From positions 512,001 to 576,000 of the forward strand of contig JBJMOW010000004.1 in the NCBI GenBank assembly GCA_045803545.1: a stretch of DNA of 64,000 nt, given 5' to 3'. Source of the stretch: Gemmatimonadaceae bacterium. Its GTDB lineage: Bacteria > Gemmatimonadota > Gemmatimonadetes > Gemmatimonadales > Gemmatimonadaceae. The translations under genes were made by a program, and so were the position numbers. Positions 50,447 through 64,000 of the stretch are shown here, piece after piece. The notes beneath the pieces are model-generated. The model made no database searches and was not told the origin of the DNA. It worked only from the letters and a program-made list of their open reading frames with translations. Numbering within the stretch: position 1 is the first letter of the stretch; each line of letters begins with the position of its first letter.

Positions 50447-51313
50447 ATGATCGTCCACCTGATCGACGGTACCTACGAGCTGTTCCGCCACTTCTACGGC
50501 CAGCGTAGCTGGAATAAGGGGAAGGACAAACCTTACGGCGCAGTCGCCGGCGTGCTGCATTCCGTTCTCGAGATGATCGAGACCGGCGCGACACACGTCG
50601 GCGTCGCGACCGATCACGTCATCGAGTCGTTCCGCAACGACCTCTGGCCTGATTACAAAACCGGCGAGGGGATCGAGCCCAGTCTTTGGAAGCAGTTCCA
50701 GCCACTCGAGGATGCGCTGGTGGCAATGGGCGTCGCGACCTGGCCAATGGTGGAGCTCGAGGCGGACGATGGCCTCGCGTCAGCGGCGCAGCTCGCTTCC
50801 GAGGATGAGCGCGTCGAGAAAGTCTGCATCTGGGCCAACGACAAGGATCTCGCGCAGTGCGTACGCGGTGATCGCGTGGTCCAGATAATCCGCAAAGGAA
50901 TGCAGATCAGGAACGCTGAAGGTGTCCGCGCCAAATTCGGCGTGCCGCCGGAGCTGGTTGCCGACTATCTCGCCCTGGTCGGTGACGCGCAGGACGGCTA
51001 CCCGGGCGTTCGCGGGATTGGTGCCAGCACCGCGGCGTCGCTGCTCAACAAGTACGGTCCTATCGAGTCGTTCCCCGAAACCATACTCGGCGAAAATCGC
51101 GACAACGCGCTGCTGTTCAAGAATCTGGCGACATTGCGAACCAATGCCCCGCTGTTCACCGATATCGATCAGCTCGAGTGGAAGGGCGCAACGCCCGCTT
51201 TTGCTGAATGGCCCCAGCGGATGGACGACAAACGGATCGAGGCCAGAGCGGCGAACGCACGCGCCAAGGCATCGAAGAAATCGTCCGACGACCCTCAGTC
51301 AATATCGTTCTGA
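50447..51313 (+). CDS. Stand-alone 5'-3' exonuclease / flap endonuclease (PolI N-terminal-like)
   Basis: LIDG, FRNDLWPDYK, EADD, DKDLAQ, LVGD..DG.PGV.GIG. Confidence 0.9.
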   Translation: MIVHLIDGTYELFRHFYGQRSWNKGKDKPYGAVAGVLHSVLEMIETGATHVGVATDHVIESFRNDLWPDYKTGEGIEPSLWKQFQPLEDALVAMGVATWPMVELEADDGLASAAQLASEDERVEKVCIWANDKDLAQCVRGDRVVQIIRKGMQIRNAEGVRAKFGVPPELVADYLALVGDAQDGYPGVRGIGASTAASLLNKYGPIESFPETILGENRDNALLFKNLATLRTNAPLFTDIDQLEWKGATPAFAEWPQRMDDKRIEARAANARAKASKKSSDDPQSISF

Positions 51314-55865: not shown

Positions 55866-56810
55866 ATGCTTTGCATTCTCTACGTCAATGCAGTTGGAGC
55901 TCTCCTGGGGATCGCCGGTATATCCATGGAGCGACTACTGCCGACGACTGCGCCGAGGCGTTGGGTGTGGTGCTTGATCATTCCCGCGTCGATGTTCGTG
56001 CCCGGATTCTATCGGATGCACCACAACTGGATTGTCACTGACGGCGCGGTAGCAACCGATCTCTCGATTGTCGGAGACTTCCGCGGATGGTGGGCACGCA
56101 GCGGAAATTTCGACTCAACGATCAATCGAGTGTGGTGGACGGTTTCTCTGGTGCTACTGATCTGGGGCGTCGTCAACGCATTACGCGTAGCCTTCCTGGT
56201 CGCGATGTCACGGCGGCAAGCCGGAGCGCGCAAAGCACCGGTCGTCGACGGCGTGCCGATCGTCGTCACCGACCAGCTCGGGCCGGCCACTGTTGGCTTG
56301 ATGCGGTCGCGGGTGCTGGTGCCGCGTTGGGTCCTGGCGCTGCCAGGCATGCAGCGGCGATACGTGCTCCGTCATGAAGAGGAGCATCGGCGCGCGCACG
56401 ATGTGCATTTGCTGCTCTTTGCATCGCTACCGCTGCTGTTGATGCCGTGGAACCTCGCGATGTGGTGGCATCTGCGCCGACTCTCCCTCGCAGTGGAGCT
56501 CGATTGCGACAATCGGGTCGTCAACGCGCTGGGGGATGCGCCTGCCTATGGCGAGCTCCTTCTCACAGTTGCGACTGCAGCGAGCAAAACGCCCAGGCTC
56601 CAGCCGGCATTCCTCGGCGGCGCCGGGTCGCTCGAGCGTAGGTTACGGGCGCTCGTATCGCCGGCGCCACTCCGTCGAGCGCAGAAATTTCTGCTGCCAG
56701 TGCTGACGGTGACGCTCCTGTTTATTGTTGTCTGGATGCCGCATCCGATACTCGGGCCCAACTGCAACGCGTCTCACCAACTGGCGTCGACAGGAACCGC
56801 TGGCAGATAA
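55866..56810 (+). CDS. M56-family (BlaR1-like) membrane metallopeptidase without penicillin-binding sensor domain
   Basis: GPA.VG, LRHEEEH (HExxH), PWN...W, ELDCD..V, YGELLL, LERRL. Confidence 0.88.
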   Translation: MLCILYVNAVGALLGIAGISMERLLPTTAPRRWVWCLIIPASMFVPGFYRMHHNWIVTDGAVATDLSIVGDFRGWWARSGNFDSTINRVWWTVSLVLLIWGVVNALRVAFLVAMSRRQAGARKAPVVDGVPIVVTDQLGPATVGLMRSRVLVPRWVLALPGMQRRYVLRHEEEHRRAHDVHLLLFASLPLLLMPWNLAMWWHLRRLSLAVELDCDNRVVNALGDAPAYGELLLTVATAASKTPRLQPAFLGGAGSLERRLRALVSPAPLRRAQKFLLPVLTVTLLFIVVWMPHPILGPNCNASHQLASTGTAGR

Positions 56811-57175
56811 TGGCAGATCTTCATTTAACGCAGCGCGAGCTCGATATCATGGGCGTGCTCTGGGAGCGCGGCGAAGCGACTGTCACCGAAGTCCGCGACG
56901 AGATCGATCCCGATCTCTCCTATACCAGCATCTCGAGCATGATTCGGACGCTCGAGCTCAAGCGCTACGTGTCGCACCGCCGCGGCGAGGGCAAGACGCA
57001 CGTCTACTTCCCGGTGATCGAAGCTGAGAAGGCCGGCGAATCCGTTCTCAAGCGCGTCCTCGAGAAGGTCTACGGCGGATCGCCGATCAAGCTCCTCGCG
57101 CATCTGATGGAGCAAAAGCGCATACCCGAGAAGGAATTGGCGCGGATGAGGGAGATGCTTAAGAAGAAGCGGTAG
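56810..57175 (+). CDS. BlaI/MecI/CopY family repressor
   Basis: LTQRELDIM.VLW.RG..TV.EV, YTSI....R.LE.K.YV, Y.GS...L. Confidence 0.92.
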   Translation: MADLHLTQRELDIMGVLWERGEATVTEVRDEIDPDLSYTSISSMIRTLELKRYVSHRRGEGKTHVYFPVIEAEKAGESVLKRVLEKVYGGSPIKLLAHLMEQKRIPEKELARMREMLKKKR

Positions 57176-59487: not shown

Positions 59488-61455
59488 TCATCGTAGCGGC
59501 GCCGCTGCTGGGGCTGATCGCGCTTTTCTGAGCATCCACCCGTACAGCCAGATAATCACGCCGACGAAGCCGATTACACCAAGCCAGGGCGCCGCTCTGA
59601 AGGCCTCGGAGACGAGGGCGATCGGCGCGTCCTTGGAGAAACCGACAATGAGACCTGCGTTGATGACGCCCCAGATGCTTTCGCCGACGATCAAGCCCGA
59701 CGCGACCAGTGTCCCCAATCGCTCGGCGCGCTCCGGGTTCGGTGTGTTCTTCACCCGACCGTCGTACCAGTGCGCGAGCACTGCGCCGACGATCACTGCG
59801 AACGTCGCCGACATTGGCAGGTAGATGCCGATCCCAACCGCGAGTGGCGGAATGCGCAACTTCTTCAGGATGCGAAGAACCTCGTCGAGAATAACGATGC
59901 CGACGCCGACCAATGCGCCGATGCCGAGCATCTTCCATTCGAGCTTGCCGCCGATGACGCCCTGTGCAAGAGCGGATATCAGCGTTGCCTGCGGAGCGGG
60001 CAGCGGGTTCGCGGCAATGACGTTTACGTTTGGTGCTCCAGCAAAGCCGTAAGCACGTGCGAGCAGATTCAGCACCGATGGAATGACTGACGCGCCGGCT
60101 GCGACACCGACGATCAGGGCGATCTGCTGGCGCATTGGTGATGCGCCAACCAGCTGACCGGTTTTCAGGTCCTGCAGATTGTCATTTGAAATTGTCGCGC
60201 AGGCAAATACGATCGCCGTCACGAACAGCGCGATCGCAACGAGTGCCTGGCTGTTTTGCGCCGTCGGTGTGACGGCGAGCGCGAACACGGATGCGCAGAC
60301 AACAATCGACAGAATACCGACACCCGAGATCGGGCTATTCGACGCCCCAATCAGGCCGGCCATGTATCCGCAGACACCCGCGATGATGAAGCCGATGATC
60401 AGCACGAAAGGAATGGAAATCAGAGTCAGCTTCAGTGCGTCAGGCGCCAGCACCGTCGATTTTGCAAACGAGTAAGCGAGCCACGCCGCGATGATCAAAC
60501 ACCCTGCCGTCAGGATGTAAATCCAGGATGGAGGTATGTCGCGGTCGAGGTCGTCTCCCGTCGCTTCCACGCGAGAAGCGCGGAGTGTGCTCACGAGTCC
60601 GCCGAATACCGGACGGGCAAGCCGACCGAGTGAGTAAATGGCGGCAACCGCGATCACGCCCGCCCCGATGAACCGAACCTGGGTACGCCAGATCGCGATG
60701 GTGTGCGCGTCGAGAGTCTGTCCGACTGTTGCCGGTTGCATCGCAGTGAGGACCGGCACCGCGATGACCCACGAGATGATTTGTCCAACTAACATCGCCA
60801 TGCCGACTGAGAGTCCGACGAGGTGTCCCGCTCCAAGCAGGGCGAGAGACCAGCCCAGATTCCAGCCGGTCGATCCTGAGCCCACGCGGGTGAATCCATT
60901 CAGCTCCGCGGCGGCAATCCGCGTCGCGGTGACAATTGCAAATCCTGCTGATGCGATCGAGCCGAGGATGACGGCGACCAAACCTTCGCGTGCTTCGCCG
61001 GATTCGTCCTTCGTCTCGCCGCGCGTGCCCGCGCCGACGATCAGAACTTCGGCTGCGGCCACTCCTTCGGGATACGGCAGATCCGAAGTCGTCACCAGCG
61101 CGCGTCGCAGCGGAATCGTGAATAGCACGCCGAGCACGCCGCCGCTCAGGCAGATAAAAAAAGATTCCCAGAACGGGAATCCAGTCCACCAGCCGATGAT
61201 CACCAATCCGGGGAGAACAAAGATGATCGCCGAGAGCGTTCCCGCTGCCGAAGCGACGGTCTGCACGATGTTGTTCTCGAGGATCGTGGAGTCCTTCACC
61301 GCGCTGAGGATCGCCATCGATATCACCGCTGCGGGGATCGATGAGGCGAAGGTGAGGCCTACCTTTAGACCGAGGTAGACGTTGGCGGCGGTGAAAACCG
61401 TTGTGATAAGCGCGCCGAGGACCAGGCCGCGTATCGTAAGCTCGTTGGGTTTCAT
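59488..61455 (-). CDS. OPT-family oligopeptide transporter
   Basis: ELTIRG, NVYLGLKVG, SIPAAVIS, ENNIVQT, L.YPEG.A, DNLQDLKTG, APQA.L. Confidence 0.94.
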   Translation of the reverse strand: MKPNELTIRGLVLGALITTVFTAANVYLGLKVGLTFASSIPAAVISMAILSAVKDSTILENNIVQTVASAAGTLSAIIFVLPGLVIIGWWTGFPFWESFFICLSGGVLGVLFTIPLRRALVTTSDLPYPEGVAAAEVLIVGAGTRGETKDESGEAREGLVAVILGSIASAGFAIVTATRIAAAELNGFTRVGSGSTGWNLGWSLALLGAGHLVGLSVGMAMLVGQIISWVIAVPVLTAMQPATVGQTLDAHTIAIWRTQVRFIGAGVIAVAAIYSLGRLARPVFGGLVSTLRASRVEATGDDLDRDIPPSWIYILTAGCLIIAAWLAYSFAKSTVLAPDALKLTLISIPFVLIIGFIIAGVCGYMAGLIGASNSPISGVGILSIVVCASVFALAVTPTAQNSQALVAIALFVTAIVFACATISNDNLQDLKTGQLVGASPMRQQIALIVGVAAGASVIPSVLNLLARAYGFAGAPNVNVIAANPLPAPQATLISALAQGVIGGKLEWKMLGIGALVGVGIVILDEVLRILKKLRIPPLAVGIGIYLPMSATFAVIVGAVLAHWYDGRVKNTPNPERAERLGTLVASGLIVGESIWGVINAGLIVGFSKDAPIALVSEAFRAAPWLGVIGFVGVIIWLYGWMLRKARSAPAAAPLR

Positions 61456-61479
61456 GCGGAGAATTCTACCTCCAAACGG

Positions 61480-62676
61480 TTACGTGCGACGAGATGCCGT
61501 AGTGCGTCGCTTGGCTTTTCGTGCTGGTGATGCTTTTTCGACAAGATTCCAGAACTGTTTCTCGCCGATCACGCGCACCGGACGCCCCTGCGCGGCGAGT
61601 CGGCGAATCTCCAGCAATTTGACACCGCCAACCGCGCCGGCGATCTGCAGCGCATTCGGCCGACCGCGCACCAGCACGTCCGACGACGGTCCGGGTGTCG
61701 ATACAACAATCGCGCCCGCTTTCTTCGCCGCCGCGATCGCTTCGCTGCGCGGGCGGGTGAGGAAACCCGTAAACGAGATGCGTTTTCCCTTGAGATTGTC
61801 GATGCGGCCAAAGTGGGGCTGCTTCGGACGTTGACGCAGCGCGGTAATGAGTTCCCGCGCCGCTTCATAGCGTTTACCGCGGGCACCGAGGCATCGATAA
61901 ATGACCTCTTTGAGATCATCGCTGCAGGGCAGTCGCCGCACATCGCGACTGCTCATCGGATCGCTGATATCGCCGCGCAGGAGCATCGCCGCGATCAGTC
62001 CGACCTGATAGATATCGTCGCGCTGCTGCCAGCGGCGCACGCGGCCCCACGCGATTTCCGACGGCGCATTGAACGGATTGAACGCGTCAGCTGTCACGCC
62101 GCGTTGGCTCATTTGATGTGTAGCGATGCCGAAGTCGCCCAGCTTGAGCTGCTCATCATCGCAGACGAAGACGTTGAATGGAGTGAGATCGCGATGCAGC
62201 GCCTGTCCTCGATGCAGCGCGTCGAGCGCGCTCAAAATCGCGGCGATCTCTCGGCGGACAAAGCGCTCGGATTGCGCGCCCTTTTCCTGGAGCCATACGC
62301 CGAGGTCGCCGTGGACCGCGTACTCGATCACCATGCAATAGCGGGTACGACCGTCAGCGAGGTCGACGAAACGGTCGTACACTTTCAGCGCCCGTTTCTC
62401 GCGGTACAACAGGTCCGCGAAGTAGGCTTCGCGCAGCCACGCCGGAAGTCGTTCGGTGATTTTGACGCAGACCTGCGCCGGCAGTCCATGCTGTGGAGTT
62501 GGAGTGGCGAGGTACACCTCGCCGAAGCCACCTTTGCCGATCAGTCGATTCAGGATGTAGCTGCGGCCACTCTCGGAGCTGTGGGCCGTACCGACAGACG
62601 ATGTAATTGCTGGGCCGTAGGACTGCACGACCGGCCTGTCGATCACAGAATTGCTGTTTGGCGTATCCGGTTTCAT
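61480..62676 (-). CDS. Hanks-type Ser/Thr protein kinase with C-terminal BRCT domain and basic tail
   Basis: IGKGGFGEVY, VCVK, HRDLTPFN, DFG, APSE, DIYQVG; then LKGKRISFTGFL..RSEA..AGA.V..DVLV.G..K..G..V.VIGEKQFW. Confidence 0.85.
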   Translation of the reverse strand: MKPDTPNSNSVIDRPVVQSYGPAITSSVGTAHSSESGRSYILNRLIGKGGFGEVYLATPTPQHGLPAQVCVKITERLPAWLREAYFADLLYREKRALKVYDRFVDLADGRTRYCMVIEYAVHGDLGVWLQEKGAQSERFVRREIAAILSALDALHRGQALHRDLTPFNVFVCDDEQLKLGDFGIATHQMSQRGVTADAFNPFNAPSEIAWGRVRRWQQRDDIYQVGLIAAMLLRGDISDPMSSRDVRRLPCSDDLKEVIYRCLGARGKRYEAARELITALRQRPKQPHFGRIDNLKGKRISFTGFLTRPRSEAIAAAKKAGAIVVSTPGPSSDVLVRGRPNALQIAGAVGGVKLLEIRRLAAQGRPVRVIGEKQFWNLVEKASPARKAKRRTTASRRT

Positions 62677-62705
62677 CGAGTCAATCTTACGAGCAAATTG
62701 CGGCA

Positions 62706-64000
62706 ATGGCCAAGAAGCAGGCGGCGGAAGTTCTGAAGATCGACGGGCGCGAAGTCCAGGTGACCAATCCGGACAAGCTCTATTTCTCGCGCGACGTAAA
62801 GCTCACTAAGCTGGAGGTGGTGCAGTACTACCTCTCGGTCGCCGGTGGCGCGGTGCGCGGAGCGCGCGATCGGCCCAACATGCTGAAACGATTTGTGAAT
62901 GGCGCTGAGGCGCCGCCTTTCTATCAGAAGCGCGCGCCCGATAACAAGCCGGACTGGCTGCGCACGGTGACTCTCTCATTTCCGTCGGGCCGCACGGCAG
63001 ACGAAGTAGTCGTCGACGATGCGGCGGGCCTCGCCTGGATTGTGAACCTCGGCTGCATCGAGCTGCATCCGCATCCCGTGCGGACCAACGATCTCGATCA
63101 CCCGGATGAATTGCGCATCGACCTCGATCCGATTCCGGGGGTGAAGTGGGATCAGGTGCGCGCGGTGGCGCTGGAAGCGAAGAACCTGATGGACGAGATG
63201 GGCCTGCGCGGCTTTGCGAAGACGAGCGGCTCGCGCGGGATGCACGTGAACACGCGCATCCAGCAGCGGTGGAGCTTCAACGAGGTGAGGCGCGCGGCGT
63301 TGGCGTTCTCGCGCGAGATCGAGAGGCGGCTACCGAAGCTCGCGACGTCGAAGTGGTGGAAGGAAGAGCGACATGGTGTGTTCCTCGACTACAACCAGAA
63401 CGCCAAGGATCGAACGACTTGCTCTGCGTATTCGATCCGTCCGTTGCCTGATGCACGAGTATCGACGCCTTTGCGCTGGGACGAGGTGCCCGACTGTGAG
63501 CCGGAAGATTTCACTGTGCTGACAGTGCCGAAGCGATTCGTCGAGATCGGGGATCCGAACGAAGCGATGGATGATTTCGCCGGCTCACTGGAGACACTGC
63601 TCGAGCTCGCTGACCGCGATGAGGCTGCCGGACTGGGCGATGCGCCGTGGCCGCCGCATTTCAGAAAGATGGAAGGCGAGGCGCCCAGGGTTGCGCCATC
63701 GCGAGCAAAGGGAGGGAAGCGGGAGGCGGGTGGAGGGAAGCGGGAAGCGGGAAGCGAGAAGCGGTCGGCTGCTAAGACTCCACGATCCAGGATGCCCCTC
63801 ATTACCGTGGCGAACTCGCCCGACAAAGACGAAGCGTTAGCGGGACTCGAGCGCTGGAAGAAACGGCATCGCGCGGTGGCGAAGCATCTCGCTGTCGATG
63901 ACGTACTGGTCGATTCGATGCGCGGAAGATCGTCGACCTGGACGCGCGTTCGCGTCAATCTCAAGAACGTGCCGGAGAAAATCAGGCCGCAGCAGGAAAA
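62706..64000 (+). CDS. Prim-PolC / LigD polymerase-domain protein (AEP primase-polymerase); 3'-truncated by the window edge
   Basis: Not in the ORF track because there is no stop in the window. My translation: MAKKQAAEVLKIDGREVQVTNPDKLYF..TK..YY..KRF..FYQKRAP..NLGCIELHP..PDELRIDLDP..KTSGSRGMH..WWKEERHGVFLDYNQNAKDRT..SAYSIR..VSTPL.W. Confidence 0.92.
   Translation, partial: MAKKQAAEVLKIDGREVQVTNPDKLYFSRDVKLTKLEVVQYYLSVAGGAVRGARDRPNMLKRFVNGAEAPPFYQKRAPDNKPDWLRTVTLSFPSGRTADEVVVDDAAGLAWIVNLGCIELHPHPVRTNDLDHPDELRIDLDPIPGVKWDQVRAVALEAKNLMDEMGLRGFAKTSGSRGMHVNTRIQQRWSFNEVRRAALAFSREIERRLPKLATSKWWKEERHGVFLDYNQNAKDRTTCSAYSIRPLPDARVSTPLRWDEVPDCEPEDFTVLTVPKRFVEIGDPNEAMDDFAGSLETLLELADRDEAAGLGDAPWPPHFRKMEGEAPRVAPSRAKGGKREAGGGKREAGSEKRSAAKTPRSRMPLITVANSPDKDEALAGLERWKKRHRAVAKHLAVDDVLVDSMRGRSSTWTRVRVNLKNVPEKIRPQQE
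63714..63762 (+). repeat. Seven-unit G-rich heptamer array inside the polymerase linker
   Basis: GGGAAGC GGGAGGC GGGTGGA GGGAAGC GGGAAGC GGGAAGC GAGAAGC, encoding GKREAGGGKREAGSEK. Confidence 0.85.

Follow-up and report, generated by a model that had tools for sequence, protein, structure and literature searches.

A soluble bacterial kinase carrying a ligase-type BRCT domain, with a candidate link to DNA

The window analyzed here, a 64,000-nucleotide stretch of a Gemmatimonadaceae genome (G000:C2:512001-576000), encodes a soluble Hanks-type protein kinase that is followed directly by a single BRCT domain. We term this protein kinase-BRCT. This kinase architecture is real and widespread, and apparently has not been described before. 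We assign a probability of roughly 0.45 to the reading that it is a stand-alone soluble kinase, gathered on DNA by its ligase-type BRCT domain and activated by dimerisation in a PKR-like manner. The original prediction, made from the sequence of this stretch, had recognized the soluble kinase-BRCT fusion, and both halves were borne out, the kinase by a Pfam match and the BRCT domain by profile and by fold. It also held that no bacterial kinase-BRCT protein had been characterized; a full-text literature search, which reached few subscription papers, found no paper on such a fusion. BRCT was likewise not found in the main text of a 42-family kinase atlas (10.1101/2025.01.12.632604), the supplements of which could hold the family. 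A eukaryotic KEN-kinase with a BRCT domain is listed in PMC3710099.

The few bacterial kinases that are tied to DNA damage use sensors other than BRCT. If the reading above is correct, kinase-BRCT would provide, in one protein, a direct route from the state of DNA to protein phosphorylation in soil bacteria, and it would inform the question of how the BRCT pocket passed from binding DNA to binding phosphopeptides. Kinase-BRCT is a small, soluble protein whose candidate key residues can be named (T303, R310 and K353; R82 and Y85; D163).

Kinase and BRCT domains

The kinase domain matches Pfam Pkinase (E = 1.6e-22), and its best profile match in the Protein Data Bank (PDB) is to PknB (1mru/3f69, E = 2.5e-32). 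The AlphaFold model of kinase-BRCT is confident (predicted local distance difference test, pLDDT, 91.1; predicted template-modelling score 0.87) and includes the bilobal kinase fold with its C-lobe helices, for which the best structural match by VIA-align is again PknB 1mru (Z 26.3, root mean square deviation 2.5, 239 residues aligned). The window copy has a Gly loop (G47-G52), K72, E83, HRDLTPFN (161-168), DFG (181-183) and APSE (204-207). K72, E83, D163, N168 and D181 are invariant in two sets of distant homologs (44/44 and 107/107), D221 is likewise invariant across distant homologs, and R269 is kept. The family also shares a signature in helix alphaC, W-x-x-E-x-Y-F, with W80, E83 and Y85 present in all 107 members of the second set. 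The enzyme is probably catalytically competent.

The kinase motifs had been described as intact. That description holds for the Gly loop, Lys, HRD and DFG, but not for the D+2 Lys, GT and APE motifs, which are absent family-wide. Position D+2 is Thr in the window copy and in 110 of 110 distant homologs (in the other set of 44, it is Thr in 35 and Lys in 6); GT is found in 4 and xPE in 3 of the 110, and the window copy reads AFNPFNAPSE. These three motifs position the Ser/Thr acceptor, and their absence across the family thus leaves the substrate class of the kinase open. Kinase-BRCT shares its fold and catalytic residues with PknB, but differs from it in several other respects. PknB/KAPD-type kinases continue into a membrane helix and an extracellular sensor, whereas here the BRCT domain comes directly after the kinase domain and there are no PASTA repeats; neither the sequence nor the AlphaFold model shows an evident membrane helix, although no dedicated transmembrane predictor was run. 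In place of the alphaC RF motif, a Trp aligns with the RF Phe and lacks the preceding Arg.

The C-terminal domain is a real but divergent BRCT domain of the LigA/RFC1 class. A Pfam scan of the whole protein gives no BRCT row at E<=0.01, and residues 283-398 alone score 18.9 bits, under the cut-off of 21.3; the closest curated family match is to NCBIfam PRK06195, a DnaQ-BRCT family (E = 9.5e-7). A 33-sequence family profile gave 10 significant matches in the PDB, all of them to LigA or RFC1 BRCT domains (best E = 1.3e-7), and the 11th row is a chance match (E = 0.68). Foldseek searches with a BRCT-only model (pLDDT 78.6) also placed LigA and RFC1 at the top, followed by the BRCT domain of Dbf4 (rank 4, 10% identity), PARP and other BRCT domains. 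The earlier assignment to the NAD-dependent ligase/RFC type is therefore confirmed, albeit below the Pfam cut-off. A Pfam BRCT row is found for 40 of 54 distant homologs, 19 of which exceed that cut-off. An ESM Atlas query with the BRCT domain alone returned BRCT clusters at 0.82-0.85, which we take as a lead only.

Six residues of the domain, T303, G304, R310, G321, G351 and K353, among them the Thr-Gly, Arg and Gly-x-Lys of the phosphate pocket, align with those in the BRCT domain of the same genome's own LigA. They are retained in 42, 40, 38, 42, 43 and 42, respectively, of 44 distant homologs, and in 102 (T or S), 107, 103, 106, 87 and 100 of a further 107. The net charge of the domain is positive in 55/55 and 97/107 homologs. 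The resemblance to LigA, RFC1 and DnaQ-BRCT thus extends over the fold, the TG...R and GxK residues and the basic surface. The domain described here differs in being fused to a kinase and in having about 10 additional residues inserted ahead of GxK. It is followed by a Lys/Arg-rich tail, KASPARKAKRRTTASRRT, as originally described; this tail is typical of the Gemmatimonadota clade, and most distant members have a short tail or none.

According to a review (PMC10386641), DNA ligase and the Pol III epsilon subunit are the sole proteins with BRCT domains in most bacteria. BRCT domains of the LigA/RFC1 class are described as binding DNA with a preference for 5'-phosphate ends (PMC10504179, PMC9293009). 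Because the domain belongs to this DNA-binding class and its phosphate pocket is conserved, recruitment of the kinase to DNA through BRCT would be a fair leading guess.

The same pocket is reported to bind phosphopeptides in eukaryotic BRCT domains (PMC10386641), and the BRCT domain of DnaQ, the protein of the closest curated family match, has in its mycobacterial form been proposed to contact the replicase (PMC11348249). The BRCT domain might accordingly be a docking module that reads pThr or pSer on the protein's own tails or on a partner, or that docks on a replication protein, with DNA not directly involved. The rank of Dbf4, a kinase adaptor, among the Foldseek matches is consistent with this idea, as is a motif in the variable N-terminal tails of a sister clade (L169-L248) and of L302-L320: of 58 such tails, 47 have [ASG]TT[RLVH] at a point 38-49 residues upstream of the Gly loop (shuffle mean 2.6), and the motif, judged by its sequence, is likely a phosphosite or docking motif. 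The clade of the window lacks it, however (2/68 tails), the profile matched only LigA and RFC1, and the BRCT domain is single and strongly basic. We consider docking somewhat unlikely.

Predicted dimerisation and candidate mechanism

Complex prediction with two copies of residues 28-382 gave a score of 0.54 (runs 0.53-0.57), as opposed to 0.00 for the best of three controls. At least 91% of contacts are shared between the runs, and the pLDDT of the partner is at least 80. Of 30 solved pairs, 20 attained the mark set for this score, as did 1 of 23 single chains; these rates apply only roughly here. The predicted interface is symmetric and comprises residues 34-35, 77-89, 102-113, 153-159 and 186-190, none of the listed residues belonging to BRCT. 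Two signature residues, R82 and Y85 (107/107), lie inside it. An N-lobe dimer is known for PknB, and such dimers activate both PknB and PKR.

In the mechanism we favor, the BRCT domain would bind the DNA backbone or 5'-phosphate ends, as the LigA and RFC1 domains do. Binding would raise the local concentration of the protein and pair two kinases into the predicted alphaC-centred dimer, and dimerisation would switch on the kinase, leading to phosphorylation of its targets. The protein could thereby play a role in the general stress signalling of soil bacteria, and would not be a dedicated regulator of the adjacent gene for the polymerase Prim-PolC. A more far-reaching form of this mechanism appears doubtful: that in a kinase family spanning several phyla the ligase-type BRCT domain senses DNA breaks and DNA-templated dimerisation makes a one-protein damage checkpoint, the remodelled active site perhaps serving a Tyr or non-protein target.

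PKR, Ire1 and RNase L are ligand-templated, dimer-activated kinases, and PKR joins a nucleic-acid binder to a dimer-activated kinase. Kinase-BRCT resembles them in combining a putative nucleic-acid-binding module with a kinase predicted to form a symmetric alphaC-centred dimer. The analogy concerns mechanism alone; kinase-BRCT showed no sign of a dsRBD, of KEN or of eIF2-kinase features, although no test was aimed at them. Among bacterial kinases, RqkA of Deinococcus radiodurans is a Hanks kinase that reportedly responds to DNA ends with higher activity and targets proteins of repair and division (PMC11007091). Compared by description, its sensor is a WD40 propeller that binds pyrroloquinoline quinone, not BRCT. 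CapK-CapS is described as including a bacterial kinase directly activated by damage-derived DNA (PMC13373217); that kinase is of the anti-sigma-factor type, and its gene, together with that of its substrate, lies upstream of immune operons, whereas kinase-BRCT has no conserved partner.

The kinase-BRCT gene is stand-alone and has no fixed gene partner. The 280 immediate neighbors of 167 kinase loci fall into 180 families, and a conserved operon was rejected on this ground. Gene calling around the kinase relied on a home-made codon score and may contain errors. Since many of the metagenome loci are short, the absences reported below hold for the flanks covered, which amount to 1.29 Mb outside a genus-level group of loci. 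This group corresponds to a tree clade with 0.99 support, minus L034 (which is without Prim-PolC) and plus the partial locus L008.

Several observations weigh against the DNA-gathered, dimer-activated kinase proposed above. With the D+2 Lys, GT and APE motifs missing from the sequence, ordinary Ser/Thr activity is not assured. In RFC1, an N-terminal helix preceding the BRCT domain aids DNA binding; our model has no helix at residues 283-298, just before BRCT, although its part might be taken by the basic tail or by the final helix of the kinase. The dimer prediction may reflect memory of solved kinase dimers such as that of PknB. At least nine relatives of 260-303 residues apparently end after the kinase domain (P0192, P0199, P0210, P0227, P0232, P0237, P0260, P0269 and P0329), which may indicate that BRCT is dispensable for function; contig truncation is possible in these cases. 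No tie between the gene and DNA damage emerged, either: Ku was found near the kinase in 0 of 186 loci. Repair families make up 6 of the 180 adjacent families (in 18 loci) as compared to 2-3 of 150 non-adjacent ones, a difference that is not significant (p 0.3-0.5); 166 of the 180 were scanned with Pfam, the other 14 being otherwise known or large, and the 150 were drawn at random from 409. Finally, the candidate SOS box TTC-N7-GTTC, found upstream of 4/83 and 5/66 kinases versus 24/717 and 9/247 other genes, is not enriched above background, and none lies near the window kinase.

TTC-N7-GTTCG lies upstream of lexA (165464) and of recA (356395) on G000:C4 and is a candidate direct-repeat LexA box for this lineage; a second lexA, on C6, is without it. 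Co-occurrence of Ku with the kinase at the genome level (23/25 versus 186/276, including G184) was not used as support, since kin are non-independent and Ku is common.

The missing acceptor motifs also raise the prospect that the protein is not an ordinary Ser/Thr kinase: its acceptor may be Tyr or not a protein at all, or it may serve as a switch with weak kinase or ATPase activity. Such a function would be compatible with the preferred explanation, and it would fit the family-wide loss of the D+2 Lys, GT and APE Glu alongside the retention of all catalytic residues. We judge it unlikely: the fold, which most resembles PknB, is that of a full eukaryotic-type kinase including the C-lobe helices, D221 and R269 are retained, and the sister clade's Thr-Thr motif resembles a phosphosite.

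The neighboring Prim-PolC gene

Features of the kinase gene and its neighbor are listed in Table 1. The ATG codons of the polymerase (62706) and the kinase (62676) stand head-to-head, 29 base pairs (bp) apart, as originally noted. The neighbor matches Pfam LigD_Prim-Pol (E = 1.6e-85), and its identification as Prim-PolC, an archaeo-eukaryotic primase-type polymerase, was confirmed by a score of 346 bits as compared to 164 for the next Prim-Pol. It aligns with mycobacterial Prim-PolC (6sa0/5op0) through the C-terminal helix and Loop 3, as these are described in PMC5663958, but differs from it in having about 100 extra C-terminal residues and in not lying beside ligC in this genome. The extra residues form a conserved C-terminal domain after a basic linker (63700-64000 on the plus strand, continuing to 64067), which has no Pfam match.

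Table 1. Coordinates in the window of the kinase-BRCT gene, its domains and the adjacent polymerase gene.
Feature	Position	Strand	Basis and remarks
Kinase-BRCT fusion gene (P0001)	61480..62676	-	Open reading frame of 398 residues; ten closest homologs 396-398 residues
Disordered, sequence-variable N-terminal tail, residues 1-29	62590..62676	-	pLDDT <50 at residues 1-22; relatives' tails
Hanks-fold kinase domain, residues 30-282	61831..62589	-	Pfam; VIA-align; motif counts; HRDLT catalytic loop
Helix alphaC, residues 77-89	62410..62448	-	Family signature W-x-x-E-x-Y-F; centre of predicted symmetric dimer surface
Single BRCT domain, LigA/RFC1 class, residues 290-381	61534..61809	-	T303, G304, R310, G351 and K353 conserved; basic
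Lys/Arg-rich C-terminal tail	61483..61533	-	119 close homologs: median 20 residues, net charge +7
Spacer between divergent ATG codons, 29 bp	62677..62705	.	-10-like TAAGAT on minus strand
Prim-PolC orthologue, 453 residues	62706..64000	+	Ends at 64067, beyond the window; Loop 3 and extra C-terminal domain; local neighbor

The head-to-head arrangement recurs in two other loci alone, L009 and L018, where the spacer is conserved at 29 and 28 bp. A -10-like TAAGAT lies 7 nucleotides before the kinase ATG in the window and in both of these loci. A sigma-70 scan of 61300-63000 returned 0 sites, and overlapping promoters of the two genes follow from geometry only. The original prediction had suggested that ligC might be found downstream of the window. 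No ligC follows Prim-PolC there, the nearest LigC-like gene being about 84 kb further on; elsewhere the genome has five matches to ATP-dependent ligases and two to Ku.

Across the kinase loci, Prim-PolC is found near the kinase in 13 of the 22 genus-level loci and in none of the 164 others, and LigC in 5/22 and 0/164; the kinase gene directly precedes ligC in L023 and L026. Control neighbors follow the same pattern, with proline dehydrogenase in 16 and DUF2461 in 12 of the genus-level loci and neither in the other 164. Because Prim-PolC is confined to the genus-level loci in the same way as proline dehydrogenase, the pairing represents local synteny rather than a conserved unit, and a repair module of kinase and Prim-PolC, as had been proposed with LigC as a further member, is not supported. 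This removes a false lead. The linkage of homologs to repair genes on which that proposal had been staked is largely absent, and repair genes are not enriched.

At the genome level, Prim-PolC is present in 14 of 25 kinase-positive genomes and in 23 of 276 others (7/15 by genus). An unrelated control, an OPT peptide transporter, matches this co-occurrence, being present in 9 of the 25 genomes and 8 of the 15 genera. Conversely, 11/25 kinase-positive genomes have no Prim-PolC match, and 23/37 Prim-PolC genomes have no kinase match. Shared lineage or habitat explains the co-occurrence as well as function does.

We therefore regard it as very unlikely that the kinase serves specifically to regulate gap repair by Prim-PolC/LigC and is expressed jointly with the polymerase from the shared spacer. 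Such a role would be in keeping with the spacer of 28-29 bp in three genomes, the two loci with ligC and the excess of Prim-PolC among kinase-positive genomes, but the adjacencies (L009, L018, L023 and L026) stay inside one clade, neither gene is found near the kinase beyond the genus-level group, and by genus the transporter co-occurs equally. In 12 of 65 other Gemmatimonadota loci (L025, L030, L048, L051, L054, L060, L062, L063, L073, L077, L078 and L079), an AlkZ-like DNA glycosylase gene lies close to that of the kinase, mostly divergent and adjacent. This might be added in favor of such a role, although most of these cases belong to one clade.

Spread of the family and variant forms

Close homologs of kinase-BRCT are named Gemmatimonadaceae or Gemmatimonadales, and the 120 homologs listed are 74-95% identical to it. 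A profile search of 50% representatives identified 54 full-length proteins with the kinase and C-terminal domain among the best 150, at 28-49% identity; relatives overall range from about 28 to 50%. One copy of the gene is carried by 25 of 301 Gemmatimonadota genomes and by 20 of 351 genomes of a second phylum, that of a genome labelled Thermoanaerobaculia (G352 is among the 20). With 5-6 candidates scored per genome, this survey may have overlooked distant copies. In the ESM Atlas, clusters of the family come mostly from Gemmatimonadota, Acidobacteriota and Actinomycetota. Single named matches are from Nannocystaceae and Planctomycetota. Two frameshift-like homologs (P0129 and P0259) were left out of alignment A2. 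A weak search for longer fusions found just two unrelated multi-domain kinases. One locus, L017, on a contig labelled Thermoanaerobaculia, has a kinase of the Gemmatimonadaceae type together with neighbors of the window genus, which suggests mis-binning or transfer.

The patchy, single-copy and stand-alone distribution of the family could also be that of a sensor in phage defence or other conflict, one that recognizes foreign or broken DNA and arrests growth through phosphorylation. TY-Chap3, a domain described in conflict systems (PMC9503650), is fused to the N-terminus in 6 of the 54 distant members (P0137, P0142, P0143, P0144, P0147 and P0153), giving TY-Chap3-kinase-BRCT. Of six deep-branching loci, the three with TY-Chap3 that were examined (L170, L204 and L246) lie beside toxin-antitoxin or restriction genes, namely MNT-HepT, DUF433-PIN plus Macro, and GmrSD, and the other three do not. 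There are just three such loci, however, two of them close kin and all from a distant sub-clade; the two large clades show no toxin-antitoxin or restriction pattern, and outside the three loci the neighbors are mostly metabolic or regulatory, with few PIN, Uma2 or PD-(D/E)XK genes. No family members were found in viral contigs, plasmids or phages (the best viral-contig match among those listed is 29% identical, to the kinase only, and pattern matches number 0). The GC content of the gene is host-like (0.61 versus 0.60), and ratios of nonsynonymous to synonymous substitution against 10 relatives, 0.06-0.10 for the kinase domain and 0.08-0.16 for BRCT, indicate purifying selection. PADLOC gives generic kinase matches and none for BRCT alone, and comparison with known kinase defence systems (Stk2, PD-T4-6, MADS and BREX PglW) yields kinase-level matches far under the NCBIfam cut-offs and no conserved partner. 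A conflict sensor thus seems quite unlikely.

Exact contigs of 191-212 nucleotides within the kinase gene were recovered from 3 of 3 soil RNA runs; these runs were picked by this stretch, without a silent control, and are not counted as evidence of expression. Elsewhere in the window, a stand-alone 5'-3' exonuclease gene (50447-51313, plus strand) lies 11 kb from the kinase, with orthologues near the kinase in L196/L242 and in L307 (G352). A BlaR1-like M56 peptidase gene followed by that for a BlaI-like repressor occupies 55866-57175 on the plus strand.

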